A DNA stretch of 64,000 nt. It comes from a bacterium. GTDB lineage: Bacteria > UBA10199 > 2-02-FULL-50-16 > JAJFLM01. The DNA lies in contig CBDCFN010000016.1 of the NCBI GenBank assembly GCA_965216315.1, forward strand, positions 1,184,001 through 1,248,000. The letters run 5' to 3'. The translations under genes were made by a program, and so were the position numbers. Below are positions 15,646 to 59,960 of the stretch, piece by piece (within the stretch, counting starts at the first letter, position 1; every line of letters starts with the position of its first letter). The notes beneath the pieces were generated by a model. It saw only the letters and a list, made by a program, of their open reading frames with translations, was not told the origin of the DNA and did not search any database.

Positions 15646-15677
15646 GGGCACCCCAGTATGGGTGCCCATTATTTTTT
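15646..15677 (+). terminator. possible intrinsic terminator after xerC
   Basis: GGGCACCC-CAGTAT-GGGTGCCC followed by ATTATTTTTT. Confidence 0.45.
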
Positions 15678-29203: not shown

Positions 29204-29917
29204 TTAGGGGACATTCCCACCAAAGCGGAGGGCATGTCGCTCTTTCCAGTCGGCATACTGATCCTTGCGAATCTCTTTGAGCTCCCGAGTCTTCCAATTA
29301 ACCCAATTTGGGTTACCAATGAAGCACGTGCTTGAATACGGTTTCTTTTCCTTCCAGTCGTTCTTAAGGATTTCTTGAATCATCGCGAGGTATGCTGCCT
29401 GTCGGCGTTGAGGCGTGGAGCTTAGTGTGAGATAAGATGGGGCTGGGGTGATGAGGGGGTCAGCTGTACCGTAGGCATAGTAGCCGAAAGATGAGTATTC
29501 GTTGTGTCGGGGATGCTTGACCTTGTAGGCCCGTTTGGGATTGAGGTCGATGTAGAGCATGACCTTGAGTAAATCACGATCTGTTTGAATACTCGGGGAT
29601 TTAAATCGATCCATGACTACCTGGCCGCGTCTTTGGACTTGCTTGTTGTAGGCCTTGGCAAAGCATGCGTTTACGACACGGAAGAAATCAGAGAAGGTTT
29701 CTAACTCCTCCATACGTCCAGACAAATGGATATGATTATCCATGAGACAGTACGAGTAGATCTGCACTGAGTATCGGTCCTTATATTTTAGTAACAGCTG
29801 ATAGTAGAGCTCCTTGGCCCAGCATTCTTTGAGGAGCCAGGACTTATTATGGCACTGCCACGTGACGTGGAAGGTGGATTCCTCTTCGAGGATGGCACGG
29901 CGGGGGAGTGAAGGCAT
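29204..29917 (-). CDS. REP-associated tyrosine transposase (Y1/HUH, RAYT)
   Basis: FHVTWQCHN, YCLMDNHIHL (HUH), RRGQVVMDRFKS, YIDLNP (catalytic Tyr), EYSSF. Confidence 0.88.
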   Translation of the reverse strand: MPSLPRRAILEEESTFHVTWQCHNKSWLLKECWAKELYYQLLLKYKDRYSVQIYSYCLMDNHIHLSGRMEELETFSDFFRVVNACFAKAYNKQVQRRGQVVMDRFKSPSIQTDRDLLKVMLYIDLNPKRAYKVKHPRHNEYSSFGYYAYGTADPLITPAPSYLTLSSTPQRRQAAYLAMIQEILKNDWKEKKPYSSTCFIGNPNWVNWKTRELKEIRKDQYADWKERHALRFGGNVP

Positions 29918-29930
29918 TAGAACTGCATAG

Positions 29931-29946
29931 AGCAAGGACTGTGCCA
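29931..29946 (-). promoter_or_regulatory. sigma54 -24/-12 promoter upstream of the RAYT gene
   Basis: minus strand TGGCAC-AGTCC-TTGCT. Confidence 0.6.
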
Positions 29947-53386: not shown

Positions 53387-53406
53387 ATGTATCGAAAGTA
53401 TACATC
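53386..53406. promoter_or_regulatory. inverted-repeat operator/enhancer upstream of the kinase-activator gene
   Basis: GATGTAT-CGAAAGT-ATACATC; the same motif occurs at 58109-58127. Confidence 0.55.
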
Positions 53407-53433: not shown

Positions 53434-56400
53434 GTGAAAAAGAAGCTGATCTCGGATCGATATGAAATTATTAAAGAACTCGGACGAGGTGCCGGTGGAG
53501 TCACCTATCTGGTTCAGGATCGAAATGATCCCGATTTACCCAAAGCGCTTAAAATCATTAACGCTGAGTCCCAGGACGAAGCGCTCCGCCTTGCCTTCCG
53601 TCAAGAATGTCAACTGCTCAAAAAACTTTCTCACCCGAATATTGCCTGCGTTCTTGAGAGTGGAGCCGACGAAGACAGTCTTTATTACACGACAGAATAT
53701 GTGGAGGGCGAGGATTTTGTGAGCGCCTGCCGGGAGCGCGACTGGAATGCGGTCTTCTCCCTGATCGTACAGGCCTGTTGGGGGCTGGACTATCTCCATA
53801 AACAAAAAGTCATCCACCGTGATCTGAAACCGGCTAACATACTCGTCGGAAAAATTCACGAATCCGACAAGACGCTGGAGATGGAAAGCGTCCGGCTTAA
53901 GATAATTGATTTTGGATTGGCACTGAGTGCGGCGCAGCAGAGTCATGCGATGGAGACGGCGGGGACGCTCGGTTATATGGCACCCGAAGTCCTTGCGGGC
54001 GATGCCTATGACGGTCGAGCGGATCTCTACTCCTTAGGGGTTGTTCTCTACGAAATGGCTTTAGGCCGTTTACCGACGACAAAAACAACTAACTTTTCCG
54101 AATATCTGCAGGCTTTGCATCAACATCGAGTCGATATGGCGCCGCTACACGATAGTGATGAAATTCCCGGGGGGATTGTCAGTATTATCGAAAATTTAGT
54201 GATTGCTGACCCCGAAAAACGTCTTAAATCGGCACGCGAGGTCATCAAGTTACTCAATAAACGTGAGGATGAGTCATTTACCCTGACAGTTCCATCAAGC
54301 GAGACGAAGGGAAGAAGTCAGGCAAAGCGTAAGAAGGCTCCGATAAAACGTGCCACATCAAGTCAAACCGCATCAGCCCAAGAGAAAGTTGATAGTTTGC
54401 TGTCAATGATAAGGAGTGGGCGGCAACAAGAGGCTCGGGATTACATAGAAAACGAATTAGGATCGTTTGATGCGGAAAAAGATGCCGGTTTGGTCGAAGA
54501 ATTCTATGGGGCTGCGGGCCACGTTCTGACGGAGCAGGGTCAGTTTGATCAAGTGCATGATCTTATCAATAAAATGGAGAAACATCCGGCGCTTCGCGGT
54601 AAGGTTTCTATCGAGCAATTGATACTAGCCGTCCAATTGGCTTACCGGGAAGGGAAATTGGATGAGGCGAAGAAAAAACTGGGCGCAGTGACAGCCAAAC
54701 AGCTCAAAAAAGCTTCGTTGCAACAACAGACGCGCGTCGAGACGTATCGAGGTCTCGTATTGCAGGGCTTAAAGGAATTTGATGAGGCCGTGAAGGCTTT
54801 TGAGCGTGGGGCGGCGATGGCGGCTGAAAGTGGGCGCAAAGATCATCAGGTCGGCTTGCTCGCGAATGCCGCAACGCTTTATTACGATCAGGGTCAGTGG
54901 GGTCAAGCTTATGAGATGTATTGCCGGGCCGAAAAACTCGCCCGTGCCGGCACGAATACGCCTCTGCTCGGGACGATCCTCAATAACTTAGGCAATCTTT
55001 ACTTGTATTTCGGGCGTCAAAAGCAGGCCGAGCAGGCCCTGGAAGAATCTTTGCATATTGCGGAGGAACAGGGCCTTTCCGAATTGATCGCTTATAATCG
55101 ATACCTGCTCTCAACCGGAGAAATCGGGAAGGGCAATAGAGAAAAGGTTGCCGATTACTTAAGGCAGGCCTTGGAGTATGCCCGTGGTCTCGGGGGGTCT
55201 CAGGCGCTTTTTCAGGCGCGTCTTGCCGAGGCGTATTTTCATTTGTCGCAAGATGATTTCGAGGCCTGCAACGAGGACCTCCGTCTCTTGAGGGAGTGTG
55301 CCGGTGAAACGGGGCAGGCGGCATATGACTTGCAAGTAGACTGGTTTGAGGCGCGGTTTCGCATTCAGGAAAATAGTTTTGCTGATTATCCTGTGGCGGA
55401 TTGGTTGCAAGCCGTTCACGATGATGTGGTGAAACGACAGCTCCCTAACAGTCTGTGGCAGGTACTCAAGGATAAAGGCGATTTAGCGAAGGCGTTGGGG
55501 AATGAAGCTGAGGCTCAACAGGATTACCAGCGGGCCTTGGAAGTCATCGAAGAGCTAAAAGCGCGCGTGCCGAAAAAGTATCAGGAGAGCTTTATGCGAG
55601 ATCGCAAAAAAGAAAAAATACGTCGCTCACTTGAATTATTAAAGCCGTCAGAAACGGCAGAACCTGCCGAACCTGCGGATAAGAGTGATGTGACTTTTTC
55701 CTTTAAACGTTGGGCCGAGATTAATCGACGTCTCCTTATGCAATACGATATCGACCAACTGCTGGAGGAAATACTTGATACGGCATTGCGCATTACCGAT
55801 GCTGAACGTGGTTTTGTTATCCTTTCGGACGAACAGAACCTTGATATTAGAGCGGCACGCAATTTTGATAAACAAACGTTGAATCCGGATGCGGAGGAAT
55901 TCTCCTTTACGATCGCGCGCGATGTTATGCGTAAGGGTGAGAGCACAGTCAGCTTAGACGCGGCAGCCGATGAACGCTTTGCTGAGGCGCGCTCGGTGCA
56001 TTCACTGAAAATTCGTTCCGTGCTGTGCGTCCCGCTTCATTTAGGTCAGCGGACGGTGGGGCTCATTTATCTCGATAACCGTTATCGCCCGGGTGTTTTG
56101 ATCAATGAACATATCGAATTGATCGAAGCCTTGGCGGACCAAGCCTCCTTGACGCTGGAGCATGCGCGTCTGCATCGGGAGAATAAGGAGAAGATCGAGG
56201 AGCTGCAGTTAAACAAGCAACTCATCGAAAAGCTCAATGAACGCCTTGAAAAAGATCTGAGTGATACATCAGCCCATTTGGATGCCATGCGCGAAAGTAT
56301 GAAACGCGAACACGAAGAGATTAGCCTGCGCTATAGCTATGACAATATTATTGGAAAGAGCCCGGGGATTAAGAAAGTTCTTTCCGTGATCGACCGTGTC

Positions 56401-57312
56401 GTTGAAACGCACAGTCCGGTATTCATTTGCGGAGAATCAGGGACTGGTAAGGAGCTGATAGCGCGCGCATTTCATTTCAATGGCCCTAGAAAAGGCGGAC
56501 CCTTTATCGCGGAGAACTGCGCGGCCCTGGCGGATAATTTATTGGAGAGTGAGCTGTTTGGGCATGTGCGCGGGGCCTTTACAGGTGCGGAAAAAGATCG
56601 GGCGGGCCTGTTTCAAATGGCGCATCGAGGCACTTTGTTTCTGGATGAAGTCGGGGACATGTCCTTGGCGATGCAGGCCAAGTTGCTACGTGTCTTGCAA
56701 GAGGGTGAAGTGAGAAAGGTGGGCGGCCGGGATTATCAGAAGGTCGATGTCCGGGTGATCGCTGCGTCGCACAAGGATATTCGCAAGATGGTCACAACCA
56801 AGGAGTTCAGGCAGGATTTGTACTACCGCTTGAATGTCGTGCGGGTTGACCTGCCGCCTCTGCGCGATCGGGGTGAAGATATCTTGCTCCTGGCGGATTA
56901 TTTTCTGAGTCAGCAGGCGGAAGAGGCAGGTAAGCGGAAGCCACGCTTGAGCAAGGGGGCGATTCGAGTGTTATTGGATTATTCGTGGCCGGGGAACATC
57001 CGCGAATTGCAGAATGAGATGCAGCGTCTACTCATATTGGGTGCCGACGTGATTAGCCCTTCATTATTGAGTCCTCAGCTGATTGAGGGGGTTCAGTCAC
57101 AGCGCCAGCGTATCAAGGATGGTGGCTTAGAGGCGATTATCGCTCCGATCGAGAAGCAGGCGATTCTCGAGGCCTTGCAACGCTGTCGCGGAAATAAAGT
57201 CAAGGCGGCGCAACTCTTAAAGATTGGGCGCCGAACATTATATATGAAGCTCAAAGAGCATAATATCAGTCCCCATTGGGGCAAGGCGAGTGCCTCGGCG
57301 GCGCATTCATAG
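53434..57312 (+). CDS. Ser/Thr kinase-TPR-GAF-sigma54 AAA+ activator-Fis HTH fusion
   Basis: HRDLKPAN, DFG, YMAPE; TPR helices; GAF SVLCVPL..YLDNR; GESGTGKE, GAFTGA, WPGNIREL; C-terminal HTH. Confidence 0.93.
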   Translation: MKKKLISDRYEIIKELGRGAGGVTYLVQDRNDPDLPKALKIINAESQDEALRLAFRQECQLLKKLSHPNIACVLESGADEDSLYYTTEYVEGEDFVSACRERDWNAVFSLIVQACWGLDYLHKQKVIHRDLKPANILVGKIHESDKTLEMESVRLKIIDFGLALSAAQQSHAMETAGTLGYMAPEVLAGDAYDGRADLYSLGVVLYEMALGRLPTTKTTNFSEYLQALHQHRVDMAPLHDSDEIPGGIVSIIENLVIADPEKRLKSAREVIKLLNKREDESFTLTVPSSETKGRSQAKRKKAPIKRATSSQTASAQEKVDSLLSMIRSGRQQEARDYIENELGSFDAEKDAGLVEEFYGAAGHVLTEQGQFDQVHDLINKMEKHPALRGKVSIEQLILAVQLAYREGKLDEAKKKLGAVTAKQLKKASLQQQTRVETYRGLVLQGLKEFDEAVKAFERGAAMAAESGRKDHQVGLLANAATLYYDQGQWGQAYEMYCRAEKLARAGTNTPLLGTILNNLGNLYLYFGRQKQAEQALEESLHIAEEQGLSELIAYNRYLLSTGEIGKGNREKVADYLRQALEYARGLGGSQALFQARLAEAYFHLSQDDFEACNEDLRLLRECAGETGQAAYDLQVDWFEARFRIQENSFADYPVADWLQAVHDDVVKRQLPNSLWQVLKDKGDLAKALGNEAEAQQDYQRALEVIEELKARVPKKYQESFMRDRKKEKIRRSLELLKPSETAEPAEPADKSDVTFSFKRWAEINRRLLMQYDIDQLLEEILDTALRITDAERGFVILSDEQNLDIRAARNFDKQTLNPDAEEFSFTIARDVMRKGESTVSLDAAADERFAEARSVHSLKIRSVLCVPLHLGQRTVGLIYLDNRYRPGVLINEHIELIEALADQASLTLEHARLHRENKEKIEELQLNKQLIEKLNERLEKDLSDTSAHLDAMRESMKREHEEISLRYSYDNIIGKSPGIKKVLSVIDRVVETHSPVFICGESGTGKELIARAFHFNGPRKGGPFIAENCAALADNLLESELFGHVRGAFTGAEKDRAGLFQMAHRGTLFLDEVGDMSLAMQAKLLRVLQEGEVRKVGGRDYQKVDVRVIAASHKDIRKMVTTKEFRQDLYYRLNVVRVDLPPLRDRGEDILLLADYFLSQQAEEAGKRKPRLSKGAIRVLLDYSWPGNIRELQNEMQRLLILGADVISPSLLSPQLIEGVQSQRQRIKDGGLEAIIAPIEKQAILEALQRCRGNKVKAAQLLKIGRRTLYMKLKEHNISPHWGKASASAAHS

Positions 57313-57348
57313 ACCGAAAAGTCGCTGAGCTGATATAATTGAGGCGAT

Positions 57349-57822
57349 GTGAGCCATTTATTGTCGAAAATAGCGTTAGTTATTATTTTAAGCCCCTTCT
57401 TATTAGCACCTGGTGCCTGTCCCAGTGAACAGGCCGCGGTAGAGGACTCAGTCAATATTCAAGAGAGTGATGTTGCGACGGAACAAAACGTATCCGCAGG
57501 GACACGTCCGCCGAGTACGGAAGCGGCCGGGCCGGTCACTCCGGTTGATCCGGATCTGCAGGAGGCCTTAGAGGAGTGGCAGGAAGAGCAAGAAGAGAAG
57601 CAACGGCAACGCGCTGAGGCGATAAAAGAACAAGAGACAGTGGTTCGAGGGGATATAGAGGGCGTCAGGCTTCCGGATGACGCCGCGCCGATACGTCGTG
57701 AAGAGAGTGAGAAGTGTCCTATTGAGTATGAAGGGGAACCAACCGAGATCTCATGCGAGCTCTTGCGTCGTCTCCGCGAAGCGATGCAGCACAAGGCGAT
57801 CCCGATAATTGACTCGAATTGA
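57349..57822 (+). CDS. acidic hypothetical lipoprotein
   Basis: signal peptide ending in PGAC; C-terminal Cys pair. Confidence 0.7.
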   Translation: MSHLLSKIALVIILSPFLLAPGACPSEQAAVEDSVNIQESDVATEQNVSAGTRPPSTEAAGPVTPVDPDLQEALEEWQEEQEEKQRQRAEAIKEQETVVRGDIEGVRLPDDAAPIRREESEKCPIEYEGEPTEISCELLRRLREAMQHKAIPIIDSN

Positions 57823-57920
57823 TACATATTGGCCCCTCGATCCCTTTATTTCCCCATTCATCTATCCCCGTATTTAGATAATTATTTAATAATTTCAAAT
57901 AGATAAATAATAAGGCTTAT

Positions 57921-57936
57921 TGGCACGCCATTTGCT
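57921..57936 (+). promoter_or_regulatory. sigma54 -24/-12 promoter (unit 1)
   Basis: TGGCAC-GCCAT-TTGCT after an AT-rich tract. Confidence 0.8.
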
Positions 57937-57946
57937 CTACTCTAGG

Positions 57947-58025
57947 GCAGCACACTACACACACTACGCACCCAACACACGGGACGAATGGCTGGCGGCG
58001 CAACGCGGCCAGCCATTCGCTCCTA
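57947..58025 (+). ncRNA. candidate sigma54-dependent small RNA 1
   Basis: CA-rich leader, then a 12 bp perfect stem CGAATGGCTGGC/GCCAGCCATTCG; no downstream ORF. Confidence 0.55.
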
Positions 58026-58108
58026 TCCTCTCCAGTCATAGCCGCATAATCTAGTTCACTCGCTATGCGAATTCATGCGAATTGGCGCGCTAAGAGTCCG
58101 GTCAATTT

Positions 58109-58235
58109 ATGTATCGATCCGATACATACTGGGGTTTTTCAGCGGCGATGTTATCAAGTTCGTGCGAAAGGAATGATAAAATATTAAATAATATCAATAA
58201 GTTATAAAATTTCGGCTATTGGCATGGCTCTTGCT
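58109..58235 (+). promoter_or_regulatory. enhancer + IHF site + sigma54 promoter (unit 2)
   Basis: ATGTATCG-ATC-CGATACAT (58109-58127), TATCAATAAGTTA (58192-58204), TGGCAT-GGCTC-TTGCT (58220-58235). Confidence 0.8.
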
Positions 58236-58245
58236 CTCTAGGGAG

Positions 58246-58322
58246 GGACAATACGCTTTCATGCCCCTATGAAAGGTCGGATGGCTGGTGGCAATGAGGT
58301 CGCCAGCCATTTCGACCTCTTT
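58246..58322 (+). ncRNA. candidate sigma54-dependent small RNA 2 or structured leader
   Basis: long stem 58274-58318 shares the ATGGCTGG...CCAGCCATT core with unit 1. Confidence 0.5.
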
Positions 58323-58368
58323 CGGTGAGACGCCGCGAGGGGATAATGGTATAGTAGTGAGTAGACCC

Positions 58369-58854
58369 ATGAAGTTATCTAAAATTCAGTTATTATGCTT
58401 CAGTATCATCCTCCTCTCCGGTTCAGGGCTTGTCGCTTGTAAAGGTCAGTTTTCAGCGTTGCAAGGAACCGGCGTTGAAGTCGATGAGGGCGCGGATACC
58501 TCCATCGAAGGTGACGTCGGTGATGACACCGGTTTAGGCGGTGGGCCCGGCATTGATGGAGGAACCGATTCCTTTATTCCCGAAGACCCGGCCAGTGAAG
58601 GGACACCGGAACGTCCGGGTGCAACCAATCCTTCGATTCCGCGCGATCATGGCGACTTTGCGCCGTATATCCCACAAGATATGCCTAACGAGATGCGCAT
58701 GGCTGATCCGGATAGCGGGAAGGACGATGATGCACCCGCACCGGACAATGAAGAAGAGCCCGTCAACTGCGTGATTAAGTTTGGCGAAGACGGCGAGGAG
58801 ATTCCCTGTCCGCGCTTTAATGAAGTGAAGCAGTATCAGGAATTTACCGAATAA
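58369..58854 (+). CDS. acidic hypothetical lipoprotein
   Basis: lipobox LVAC; paralogous to 58864-59283. Confidence 0.75.
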   Translation: MKLSKIQLLCFSIILLSGSGLVACKGQFSALQGTGVEVDEGADTSIEGDVGDDTGLGGGPGIDGGTDSFIPEDPASEGTPERPGATNPSIPRDHGDFAPYIPQDMPNEMRMADPDSGKDDDAPAPDNEEEPVNCVIKFGEDGEEIPCPRFNEVKQYQEFTE

Positions 58855-58863
58855 TGCAGTCCG

Positions 58864-59283
58864 ATGACGTTTCTCTTTTCAAAACACAAACTGCTTGTTG
58901 CGATTTCACTCTGCGCGATGAGTTTGCTCGCCTGCCGCGGTGAATTTAGTGCGCTGACTGATGGACTGCAGGAGGCTGGAGACGGGACAACTTTAGGCGA
59001 TTCGGAAGTTGTGTCGGATAATCCGGCGCAACATGAAGGCACTCCTGAGCGACCCGGCATGCCGAATCCGCTCCCGCTTACCGATGATGAACATGATCTT
59101 CCCGAGCGTCCCGAGCATAACGCCCCAACGGAAGCGCTGGATGATACGAAGTACGACGATGAGGGGGAAGAACCGGAGCCGAGTGAAGAGGAAGAGTGTT
59201 TTCTGATGATTGACGGTGTTGAGACCAAGATTCCCTGTGAAGAATCGGCGCAACACATGCAACGCCCGGTGCTTTCAAAGTGA
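58864..59283 (+). CDS. acidic hypothetical lipoprotein
   Basis: lipobox LLAC; shares C.G.FSAL, EGTPERPG and IPC with the upstream gene. Confidence 0.75.
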   Translation: MTFLFSKHKLLVAISLCAMSLLACRGEFSALTDGLQEAGDGTTLGDSEVVSDNPAQHEGTPERPGMPNPLPLTDDEHDLPERPEHNAPTEALDDTKYDDEGEEPEPSEEEECFLMIDGVETKIPCEESAQHMQRPVLSK

Positions 59284-59297
59284 AAACGTGCGACCTA

Positions 59298-59960
59298 TTA
59301 CCCAAGCGTTCGCTTGGCAGCAAACTTATCCCGGCTCTTAATCGGAAGAATGTGCGTTTCTTTTGTTGGATCTAACTTAGGCTTAGTTCCAAAGACGATG
59401 TCCCAAAAAGGAGAGCTCACGCCGAAATAGTTGTCGCTGTCCTTAAAGTGATGAATCGAGTGATACTGTTTTAAATATTTTCCCAGTCGGGTCTTGGGGC
59501 GACCATGATGCGAGAAATAATGAATCCATTCATAAATAAGATAACCGACGGCCAGTCCCGCGCCCCATAGCATCGTGAATGCAAGGCTCTGGCTGACAGC
59601 CCACACGAGCAGCAAAAAGATTGCGTATAGGGGAATGGCCATGATGATAGGGGCGACGACATAGTCGGGGGCATTAGGAATTTCATGATGGAGGCGATGA
59701 AAACCAGAGGTCATGAATTTCCACGGTTCTTTTTCCGTATCGATGTGAAATGAAAACCGGTGCAGGAGATATTCAATCAGTGTCCAAGAGAAGAACCCCG
59801 TGAATAGTGACACGACGGCGTTGGAATACGTCATCGTGCTGTATCGAAGGGTGAGGGCCGTCATGAGGACGGCAGTACTCCCAAATACGACTATGGGAAC
59901 CCAGAAAGGTGACTTGCCCATCTTAAGATACTCTTCCGAAGTCATGTGCGTTCCTTTCAT
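59298..59960 (-). CDS. fatty acid hydroxylase / sterol desaturase family protein
   Basis: His boxes HRFSFH, HRLHH, HYFSHH, HSIHH; YFGVSSPFWD. Confidence 0.9.
   Translation of the reverse strand: MKGTHMTSEEYLKMGKSPFWVPIVVFGSTAVLMTALTLRYSTMTYSNAVVSLFTGFFSWTLIEYLLHRFSFHIDTEKEPWKFMTSGFHRLHHEIPNAPDYVVAPIIMAIPLYAIFLLLVWAVSQSLAFTMLWGAGLAVGYLIYEWIHYFSHHGRPKTRLGKYLKQYHSIHHFKDSDNYFGVSSPFWDIVFGTKPKLDPTKETHILPIKSRDKFAAKRTLG

Follow-up and report, generated by a model that had tools for sequence, protein, structure and literature searches.

A duplicated sigma-54 promoter and leader module downstream of a kinase-fused activator gene, with one candidate non-coding RNA

The DNA analyzed here, referred to below as the window, is a stretch of 64,000 nucleotides from a bacterium of the GTDB lineage UBA10199 (assembly GCA_965216315.1, contig CBDCFN010000016.1, positions 1,184,001 to 1,248,000). 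Towards its end, a gene for a sigma-54-dependent activator, that is, a bacterial enhancer-binding protein (bEBP), here carrying an N-terminal Ser/Thr kinase domain, is followed by a short lipoprotein gene, by two successive units of approximately 300 bp, and by an operon of two further lipoprotein genes (Table 1). Each unit holds a palindromic enhancer site, an AT-rich tract, a sigma-54 promoter and a sequence predicted to fold into a strong hairpin; that these elements exist, that they are duplicated and that they are connected with the activator is shown by the DNA itself. From their arrangement we tentatively favour, at rather less than an even chance, the view that unit 1 encodes one candidate non-coding RNA, and not two RNAs from both units, this candidate having arisen from a duplicated promoter-leader module whose second copy would serve the lipoprotein operon.

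Promoters of the sigma-54 type have the -24/-12 consensus TGGCAY-N5-TTGCW, which was used as the search pattern, with GG at -24, GC at -12 and fixed spacing. The window contains three such sites against 0.12 expected, a number reached in none of 100 shuffles. Two of the three are the promoters of unit 1 (P1) and unit 2 (P2), which lie 299 bp apart, and the extended -24/-12 consensus is matched more closely in P1 than in P2. Counting approximately 12 nt past the GC at -12, transcription would start at 57947 in unit 1 and at 58246 in unit 2. The third site (29931-29946, - strand) stands directly 5' of an IS200-like Y1 transposase gene (29204-29917, - strand; Pfam Y1_Tnp, E 8e-7), to which it would give almost no 5' untranslated region (UTR), and no enhancer palindrome was seen there.

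Upstream of both promoters lie copies of a 19-bp palindromic motif, which were scored by mismatches in its 17-nt core. Sites with two mismatches or fewer number two in the window, against 0.17 expected. The unit 1 copy is more degenerate, and it aligns with the unit 2 copy both in the alignment of the units and in the repeat family described below. From enhancer to promoter the gap is 94 bp in unit 1 and 93 bp in unit 2, which places the centres of the palindromes at about -129 and -128, respectively, relative to the predicted starts. In the AT-rich tract between enhancer and promoter, unit 2 matches perfectly the consensus for integration host factor (IHF), WATCAANNNNTTR, while no match was found in the tract of unit 1, where the site is degenerate. 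This consensus is not enriched in the window (five occurrences, 2.66 expected), and its weight comes from its position and not from its count. Promoters and enhancer sites together exceed chance and show the textbook geometry of sigma-54-dependent transcription. They agree with what a sequence-only reading of the locus had described, namely two consensus promoters, each preceded at 93-94 bp by a 19-bp motif, degenerate in the first unit and perfect in the second.

Table 1. Features of the activator and lipoprotein locus (positions in the window)
Feature	Positions	Strand	Remarks
Third enhancer palindrome copy, ATGTATCG-AAA-GTATACAT	53387-53405		2 mismatches in 17-nt core
Sigma-54 activator (bEBP), 1292 aa, N-terminal Ser/Thr kinase	53434-57312	+	Pfam: Pkinase, TPR, GAF, Sigma54_activat, AAA_lid, HTH_8
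Lipoprotein paralog 1, 157 aa	57349-57822	+	Stop codon within unit 1 enhancer site; separates activator gene from unit 1
Unit 1 enhancer site, degenerate palindrome, core TGACTCG-AAT-TGATACA	57809-57827		3 mismatches in 17-nt core
Unit 1 AT-rich tract	57865-57916		71% to unit 2 counterpart (repeat family)
Unit 1 sigma-54 promoter (P1), TGGCACG-N4-TTGCT	57921-57936	+	Exact consensus match
Unit 1 predicted leader, C/A-rich, G-poor	57947-57984	+	Unpaired in 114-nt fold; A14 C16 G6 T2
Unit 1 predicted hairpin	57982-58023	+	-32.4 kcal/mol; no U-tract after it
Unit 1 tail/spacer	58024-58108	+	No similarity to unit 2; open reading frames of 32-40 aa only
Unit 2 enhancer site, perfect palindrome ATGTATCG-ATC-CGATACAT	58109-58127		TGT-N11-ACA ends
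Unit 2 IHF consensus	58192-58204	+	Perfect match, centred at about -48 from predicted start
Unit 2 sigma-54 promoter (P2), TGGCATG-N4-TTGCT	58220-58235	+	Exact consensus match
Putative structured 5' UTR of lipoprotein operon	58246-58368	+	Fold prediction
Unit 2 predicted hairpin	58274-58318	+	-32.2 kcal/mol; within 5' UTR 58246-58368
Lipoprotein operon, paralogs 2 and 3	58369-59283	+	No Pfam family
Lipoprotein paralog 2, 161 aa	58369-58854	+
Lipoprotein paralog 3, 139 aa	58864-59283	+

We then considered how the two units relate to each other. A 59-nt repeat of 71% identity occurs in copies 299 bp apart, and more repeat families have spacings of 296 and 293 bp. Compared by blastn, the units match each other in a single block, 57880-58017 against 58179-58311, which has 141 columns at 66.7% identity (E 2e-11). 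Over their full length, the units align with 150 of 314 columns identical, and this identity is unevenly spread: each 20 columns hold 12-16 identical positions in the enhancer, AT tract, promoter and hairpin, and 4-7 elsewhere. The units are thus diverged tandem copies of each other, so that the pair of roughly 300-bp units with duplicated enhancer architecture seen in the sequence-only reading finds further support. With the identity concentrated in the functional blocks, the punctate pattern looks like an old duplication in which these blocks have been under selection in both copies. A blastn search of 57800-58370 against plasmids gave zero matches.

The activator gene itself connects the palindrome to its likely reader. 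The third copy of the motif lies between the stop codon of an upstream DDAH-like gene and the GTG start of the activator gene, 30 nt before that start, and this position ties the palindrome to the activator. It is the best evidence that the palindrome is the predicted site of this protein, and it suggests that the activator may bind its own promoter region, in an autoregulatory manner. The protein has the expected equipment, with Pfam matches to Sigma54_activat (E 1e-68) and HTH_8 (E 4e-14), and its translation carries the GAFTGA loop, Walker A and the catalytic motifs of the kinase. That both promoters are under the control of this activator can be inferred on good grounds. This agrees with the sequence-only reading in so far as it had assigned both units to the kinase-activator fusion, whose domains and upstream palindrome are present; the adjacency that it had also claimed is not direct, as the gene for the 157-aa lipoprotein intervenes.

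Eight full-length relatives of the activator were found, at 46-60% identity, one of which is labelled in its source as coming from a deltaproteobacterial metagenome-assembled genome (MAG), and some database relatives carry the source label 'Nif-specific regulatory protein'. An activator-based search of genome contigs gave 17 loci, none of them full-length or orthologous, and the best, at 42% identity, covered the AAA+/HTH part only. The upstream activating sequence of the NifA type is TGT-N10-ACA. Like NifA, the activator combines a GAF domain with an AAA+ and HTH_8 core, and its palindrome, of the TGT...ACA form, lies approximately 130 bp upstream, with a putative IHF-type site between palindrome and promoter in unit 2. 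Unlike in NifA, the spacer is 11 nt instead of 10, the protein has an additional N-terminal Ser/Thr kinase and TPR part, and the targets would be lipoprotein genes and not nif genes. Among the matches listed in a literature search on sigma-54 activators with a Ser/Thr kinase domain, no paper contained the kinase-domain phrase, which is weak evidence that the kinase-fused architecture is uncharacterised.

Downstream of the promoters, the units have a predicted hairpin in common. Its arms, in the form ATGGCTGG-N(6-24)-CCAGCCAT, were found at 57988-58016 and 58281-58310 only (two matches, against none in 100 shuffles). When the predicted transcripts were folded and compared with 200 shuffles each, unit 1 had a z-score of -4.3, with 0 of 200 as good, and unit 2 a z-score of -3.2, with 1 of 200. 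In the consensus of the two copies, 11 of the 17 base pairs are unchanged, five have a change on one side that still pairs, one is compensatory (A-U to U-A), and none is broken; in the hairpin region, 27 of 34 paired columns are identical, against 7 of 27 unpaired ones. Drawn from two paralogous copies, which is few, this comparison favours an RNA structure read from the + strand over a DNA operator.

Such an operator, in which the inverted repeat ATGGCTGG-N13/14-CCAGCCAT would bind a dimeric repressor 3' of both promoters without acting as RNA structure, would be in line with the perfectly kept 8-bp arms, whose centres are 21-22 bp apart, and with hairpin 1 being nearly equal in stability on both strands. 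It would leave aside the complementarity that extends inward and outward beyond the 8-bp arms, in sequences that differ between the units and that include G-U pairs and the compensatory change. Moreover, hairpin 2, which has G-U pairs, is less stable by 10.5 kcal/mol when folded from the - strand (-21.7 kcal/mol, against -32.2 kcal/mol for the + strand). Overall, we regard the operator as scarcely probable.

Two more readings of the hairpin were tried and rejected. Regarding a peptide-coding role, hand translation showed that the short open reading frames (ORFs) beginning at the ATG in the 5' arm of each hairpin differ between the units in the frame in which they pass through the conserved 3' arm; as for a dispersed repeat of the REP type, no more copies exist in the 64 kb. 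When a covariance model of the hairpin was run over the window with filters off, only the two copies used to train it, including their reverse strands, had E<0.01, and the next match had an E-value of 0.72.

The context of the second hairpin then bears on what unit 2 is. Hairpin 2 ends 50 nt before the start codon of the lipoprotein operon, and a sigma-70 promoter scan of 57000-59600 gave one site only, at 57310-57339, so that unit 2 is the sole evident promoter of the operon 58369-59283. As the only evident promoter, with its hairpin 50 nt before a start codon, unit 2 is most probably a promoter followed by a structured 5' UTR, and not an sRNA (small RNA) gene. The paralogous sRNA pair of the sequence-only reading is not upheld in consequence, its second member preceding a lipoprotein gene by 50 nt where the operon has no other promoter. 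In the same leader, positions 58337-58354 carry GAGGGG and, 3 nt on, a mini-ORF of two codons (ATG GTA TAG); the predicted fold has GAGGG paired with CCUCU past the hairpin.

The lipoproteins themselves have few relatives. A Pfam scan assigned them to no family, and a word-indexed protein search returned, among 2488 candidates, the window's own three only. An exhaustive profile search of 1.84 billion representative proteins found five members of the family, two of them foreign, and the family is thus very rare; a search of the ESM Atlas gave a best score of 0.84, under lead level. Common to all three paralogs are an EGTPERPG-type motif and a C-x10-12-C pair close to the C-terminus. The sigma-70-like site at 57310-57339 has 10 of 12 matches and an extended -10 TG, and it ends 10 nt before the GTG start of lipoprotein 1, whose mRNA would be either nearly leaderless or co-transcribed with the activator gene.

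Unit 1 has a different downstream part. Its predicted RNA would start with a leader in which a 9-nt tandem repeat, CACACTACA, spans 57951-57980 in 3.3 copies, and which ties for the highest CA content among the 32-mers of the window. In this respect we concur with the sequence-only reading, which had noted a CA-rich single-stranded leader in unit 1, as 57951-57980 is predicted to be unpaired in the 114-nt fold; it had likewise reported no ORF behind unit 1, and the frames present there are short and extend across the enhancer of unit 2. Unit 1 therefore holds no credible ORF. In the spacer between unit 1 and the second enhancer site, 58065-58083 is a perfect 10-nt direct repeat (ATGCGAATTC, 1.9 copies), which weakly resembles the right half of the enhancer region.

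It is plausible but unproven that unit 1 makes a small non-coding RNA, and a number of results, given in this and the next paragraphs, weigh against it. The first of them concern the 3' end. In a terminator scan of 57000-59600, which asked for at least 5 T in the 8 nt after a hairpin, neither hairpin was called, both lacking a T-run (at most 4 T in 8), although hairpins with T-tails are present elsewhere in the window (e.g., 15646-15667 and 44409-23). The hairpins are thus not canonical terminators. Since hairpin 2 precedes an operon that has unit 2 as its only evident promoter, it must be read through, and since hairpin 1 equals it in energy and has no U-tract either, efficient termination at hairpin 1 is unlikely. 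The transcript of approximately 75 nt ending in a shared-core stem, as put forward in the sequence-only reading, is consequently retained in part: the stem and its core ATGGCTGG...CCAGCCAT are there, and a 3' end at the stem is backed neither by a T-run nor by a terminator call.

The same observations bear on the model of the sequence-only reading as a whole, according to which both units yield sRNAs of approximately 75 nt ending at the hairpin, and the lipoprotein genes are reached by regulated read-through, as in attenuation. Strong GC-rich hairpins at a similar distance from both predicted starts are what it expects, hairpin 2 is followed by TCTTTC, with 4 T in 8, and the hairpin at 905-934 after a tRNA gene, which the scan did call as a terminator, has itself an interrupted T-run (TGTCTTTAGG). 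Nevertheless, neither hairpin reaches 5 T in 8, a gene with no other promoter lies 50 nt 3' of the unit 2 hairpin, and no Rfam family was matched, all of which makes this model very unlikely in our view. The element at 905-934 is a 28-bp perfect palindrome beginning with GTAGGGGCGG, located just after the tRNA gene at 816-889. Either a terminator or a REP-like element may be present here, a point of interest because the window also has a Y1 transposase gene.

If nothing ends transcription at hairpin 1, the P1 transcript may simply continue into the operon. P1 and P2 would then be tandem promoters of the lipoprotein genes, with the P1 mRNA running through hairpin 1, the second enhancer and P2 as a leader of approximately 420 nt, and with no separate sRNA role. 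This arrangement is the initial product of a tandem duplication of a promoter region; the enhancer motif is common to both promoters, the scan found no intrinsic terminator between 57947 and 58369, and hairpin 2, as strong as hairpin 1, must be read through. A redundant P1, however, would not be expected to keep the better -24/-12 elements and the hairpin while the rest diverged to random level, nor does it explain why the unit 1 leader has turned into an unrelated CA-rich repeat. Furthermore, from established sigma-54 biology, three obstacles would stand in the way of transcription from P1, namely an occupied enhancer, a bent AT tract and a sigma-54 closed complex. Taken together, we place tandem promoters on the unlikely side, although ahead of the other alternatives.

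Searches for relatives and targets of unit 1 were negative as well. An Rfam 15 search of the whole window at gathering thresholds gave four tRNAs only. In a permissive Rfam search of 57300-58900 there were three matches at chance level (E 2.2-3.2, 15.9-17.1 bits against thresholds of 36-90), among them Pseudomonas P26 with 15.9 bits against a threshold of 36; the comparison with Rfam, which the sequence-only reading had named as a check, thus returned for 57300-58900 no family at its gathering threshold and none even at E = 1. The covariance model of the hairpin had 0 matches over the 17 loci related to the activator (207,337 bases). A duplex scan of the CA-rich leader against 5116 windows of the 64-kb stretch gave no target, the best non-self duplex having -30.4 kcal/mol, a value beaten by shuffled leaders in 10 of 10 cases. 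Pairing of the unit 1 tail with leader 2 was unremarkable too, being equalled by 35% of 1660 control windows. As evidence, these negatives for targets, copies and family are weak, since no more than 64 kb of the genome entered into them and since weak pairing is inherent in a seed poor in G.

Finally, unit 1 shows signs of decay, with three mismatches in its enhancer site and a degenerate IHF site. It could be a functionless leftover of the duplication, or the remnant of a lost fourth lipoprotein paralog. The lost IHF match and the lack of any ORF, target or relative are in agreement with this, and in the unit alignment an ATG at 58075 stands opposite the start codon of the unit 2 lipoprotein gene, as a start-codon remnant would. 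Even so, the promoter core is perfect and 0 of 17 hairpin pairs are broken, with flanks at 4-7 identical columns in 20; decay would not have spared just the promoter and hairpin blocks. The 33-aa frame from 58075, moreover, has no signal peptide. On balance, a relic seems unlikely to us.

We therefore return to the explanation that we tentatively favour, a single candidate non-coding RNA from unit 1, whose promoter activity, transcript ends and function we infer as follows. The module that has been copied in tandem 3' of the activator gene measures approximately 300 bp; it comprises the palindrome at about -128, an AT-rich tract that would bend the DNA, the -24/-12 promoter and a leader in which a hairpin of 17-19 bp is predicted. 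The kinase-fused activator would bind the palindromes and open both sigma-54 promoters. From P2, this would yield the lipoprotein mRNA with its structured leader, and from P1 an untranslated RNA starting at approximately 57947, in which the unstructured CA-rich 9-nt repeat (3.3 copies) is followed by the hairpin. The latter would be an RNA element common to unit 1 and the lipoprotein leader, and not an intrinsic terminator. To give a discrete RNA of approximately 75-150 nt, one route to a 3' end would be needed: Rho might act on the leader, whose C-rich, G-poor and untranslated sequence would suit the entry of Rho; the second copy, with its enhancer and promoter occupied, might form a roadblock; or the RNA might be trimmed from its 3' end back to the hairpin. 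Most likely, such an RNA would imitate the hairpin of the lipoprotein leader and thereby titrate whatever factor recognizes it, or would work through its CA-rich 5' domain.

Among known sigma-54-dependent RNAs, Qrr and CrcZ are transcribed from promoters that require sigma-54 and a bEBP, and CrcZ adjoins its activator gene and contains repeated single-stranded A-rich motifs. Unlike these RNAs, the present locus has no Rfam match at E = 1 in 57300-58900 and no terminator, and, in place of the A-rich motifs of CrcZ, the repeats of unit 1 are CACACUACA.

The closest precedent of unit 1 is Pxr, an sRNA of Myxococcus. The pxr gene lies downstream of the sigma-54 activator gene nla19, between the activator gene and the NADH dehydrogenase gene, and in Cystobacter strains several pxr paralogs stand in tandem, every one of them behind a sigma-54 promoter of its own; the RNA has three stem-loops, of which SL1 and SL2 are conserved (PMC5568312). 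Its accumulation needs a conserved 8-bp stem core in a hairpin, and 3' primer sequences indicate that it ends in a T-run (PMC5684412). The location 3' of a sigma-54 activator gene, the sigma-54 promoter, the tandem paralogs and the 8-bp stem core all find a counterpart here. In contrast, the present locus has one dominant predicted hairpin with a different core and no U-tract, lipoprotein genes as neighbours, a kinase/GAF fusion instead of a response regulator as activator, and one copy that would be an mRNA leader. No sequence relation between Pxr and unit 1 was found, in a comparison that rests on descriptions of Pxr.

Desulfovibrio vulgaris offers a precedent for sigma-54-dependent non-coding RNAs next to bEBP genes, as three of them lie beside their own, DVU0653, DVU0679 and DVU2359 (PMC4641369). 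These resemble unit 1 in combining a sigma-54 promoter with enhancer sites, in having a non-coding RNA beside the activator gene as sole product, and in coming from a deltaproteobacterial-type lineage; they differ in that their bEBPs are response regulators or single-component proteins with no kinase domain, and the comparison is one of location, not of RNA sequence. Mimicry between RNAs is exemplified by GlmY and GlmZ, two homologous RNAs of which one serves as decoy for the binding protein of its partner, with glmY depending on sigma-54 through a bEBP at upstream activating sequences (PMC7073468, PMC4152352 and PMC6075780). RNA mimicry under sigma-54 control would be shared with our locus, where it is a hypothesis only; GlmY and GlmZ differ in being free-standing sRNAs with known partners, RapZ and glmS, and the presumed mimicked partner here is an mRNA leader. 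In the passages searched in PMC12316311, nothing on sRNAs was found.

A more specific version of the candidate would have unit 1 encode a leader-mimic RNA, derived by duplication of a promoter and 5' UTR, whose hairpin titrates a factor acting on its identical counterpart in the lipoprotein mRNA, and whose CA repeats recruit Rho or a second protein, or pair with GU-rich targets, the circuit being switched by the activator with its Ser/Thr kinase input. Speculative as it is, this version seems to us improbable. If true, it would connect Ser/Thr-kinase signalling directly to riboregulation, and would show the origin of an sRNA gene from an mRNA leader.

Should unit 1 make no functional RNA, the locus would still be a well-defined small regulon, in which one activator and one palindrome motif serve two promoters, with three orphan lipoproteins; as a test bed for this class of activators the locus would be useful, and it would be ordinary sigma-54 biology otherwise. 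If, on the other hand, the unit 1 RNA is functional, the locus would be a clean case of an sRNA gene that arose through tandem duplication of a sigma-54 promoter and mRNA leader, and riboregulation would here be governed by an activator whose input domain is a Ser/Thr kinase.

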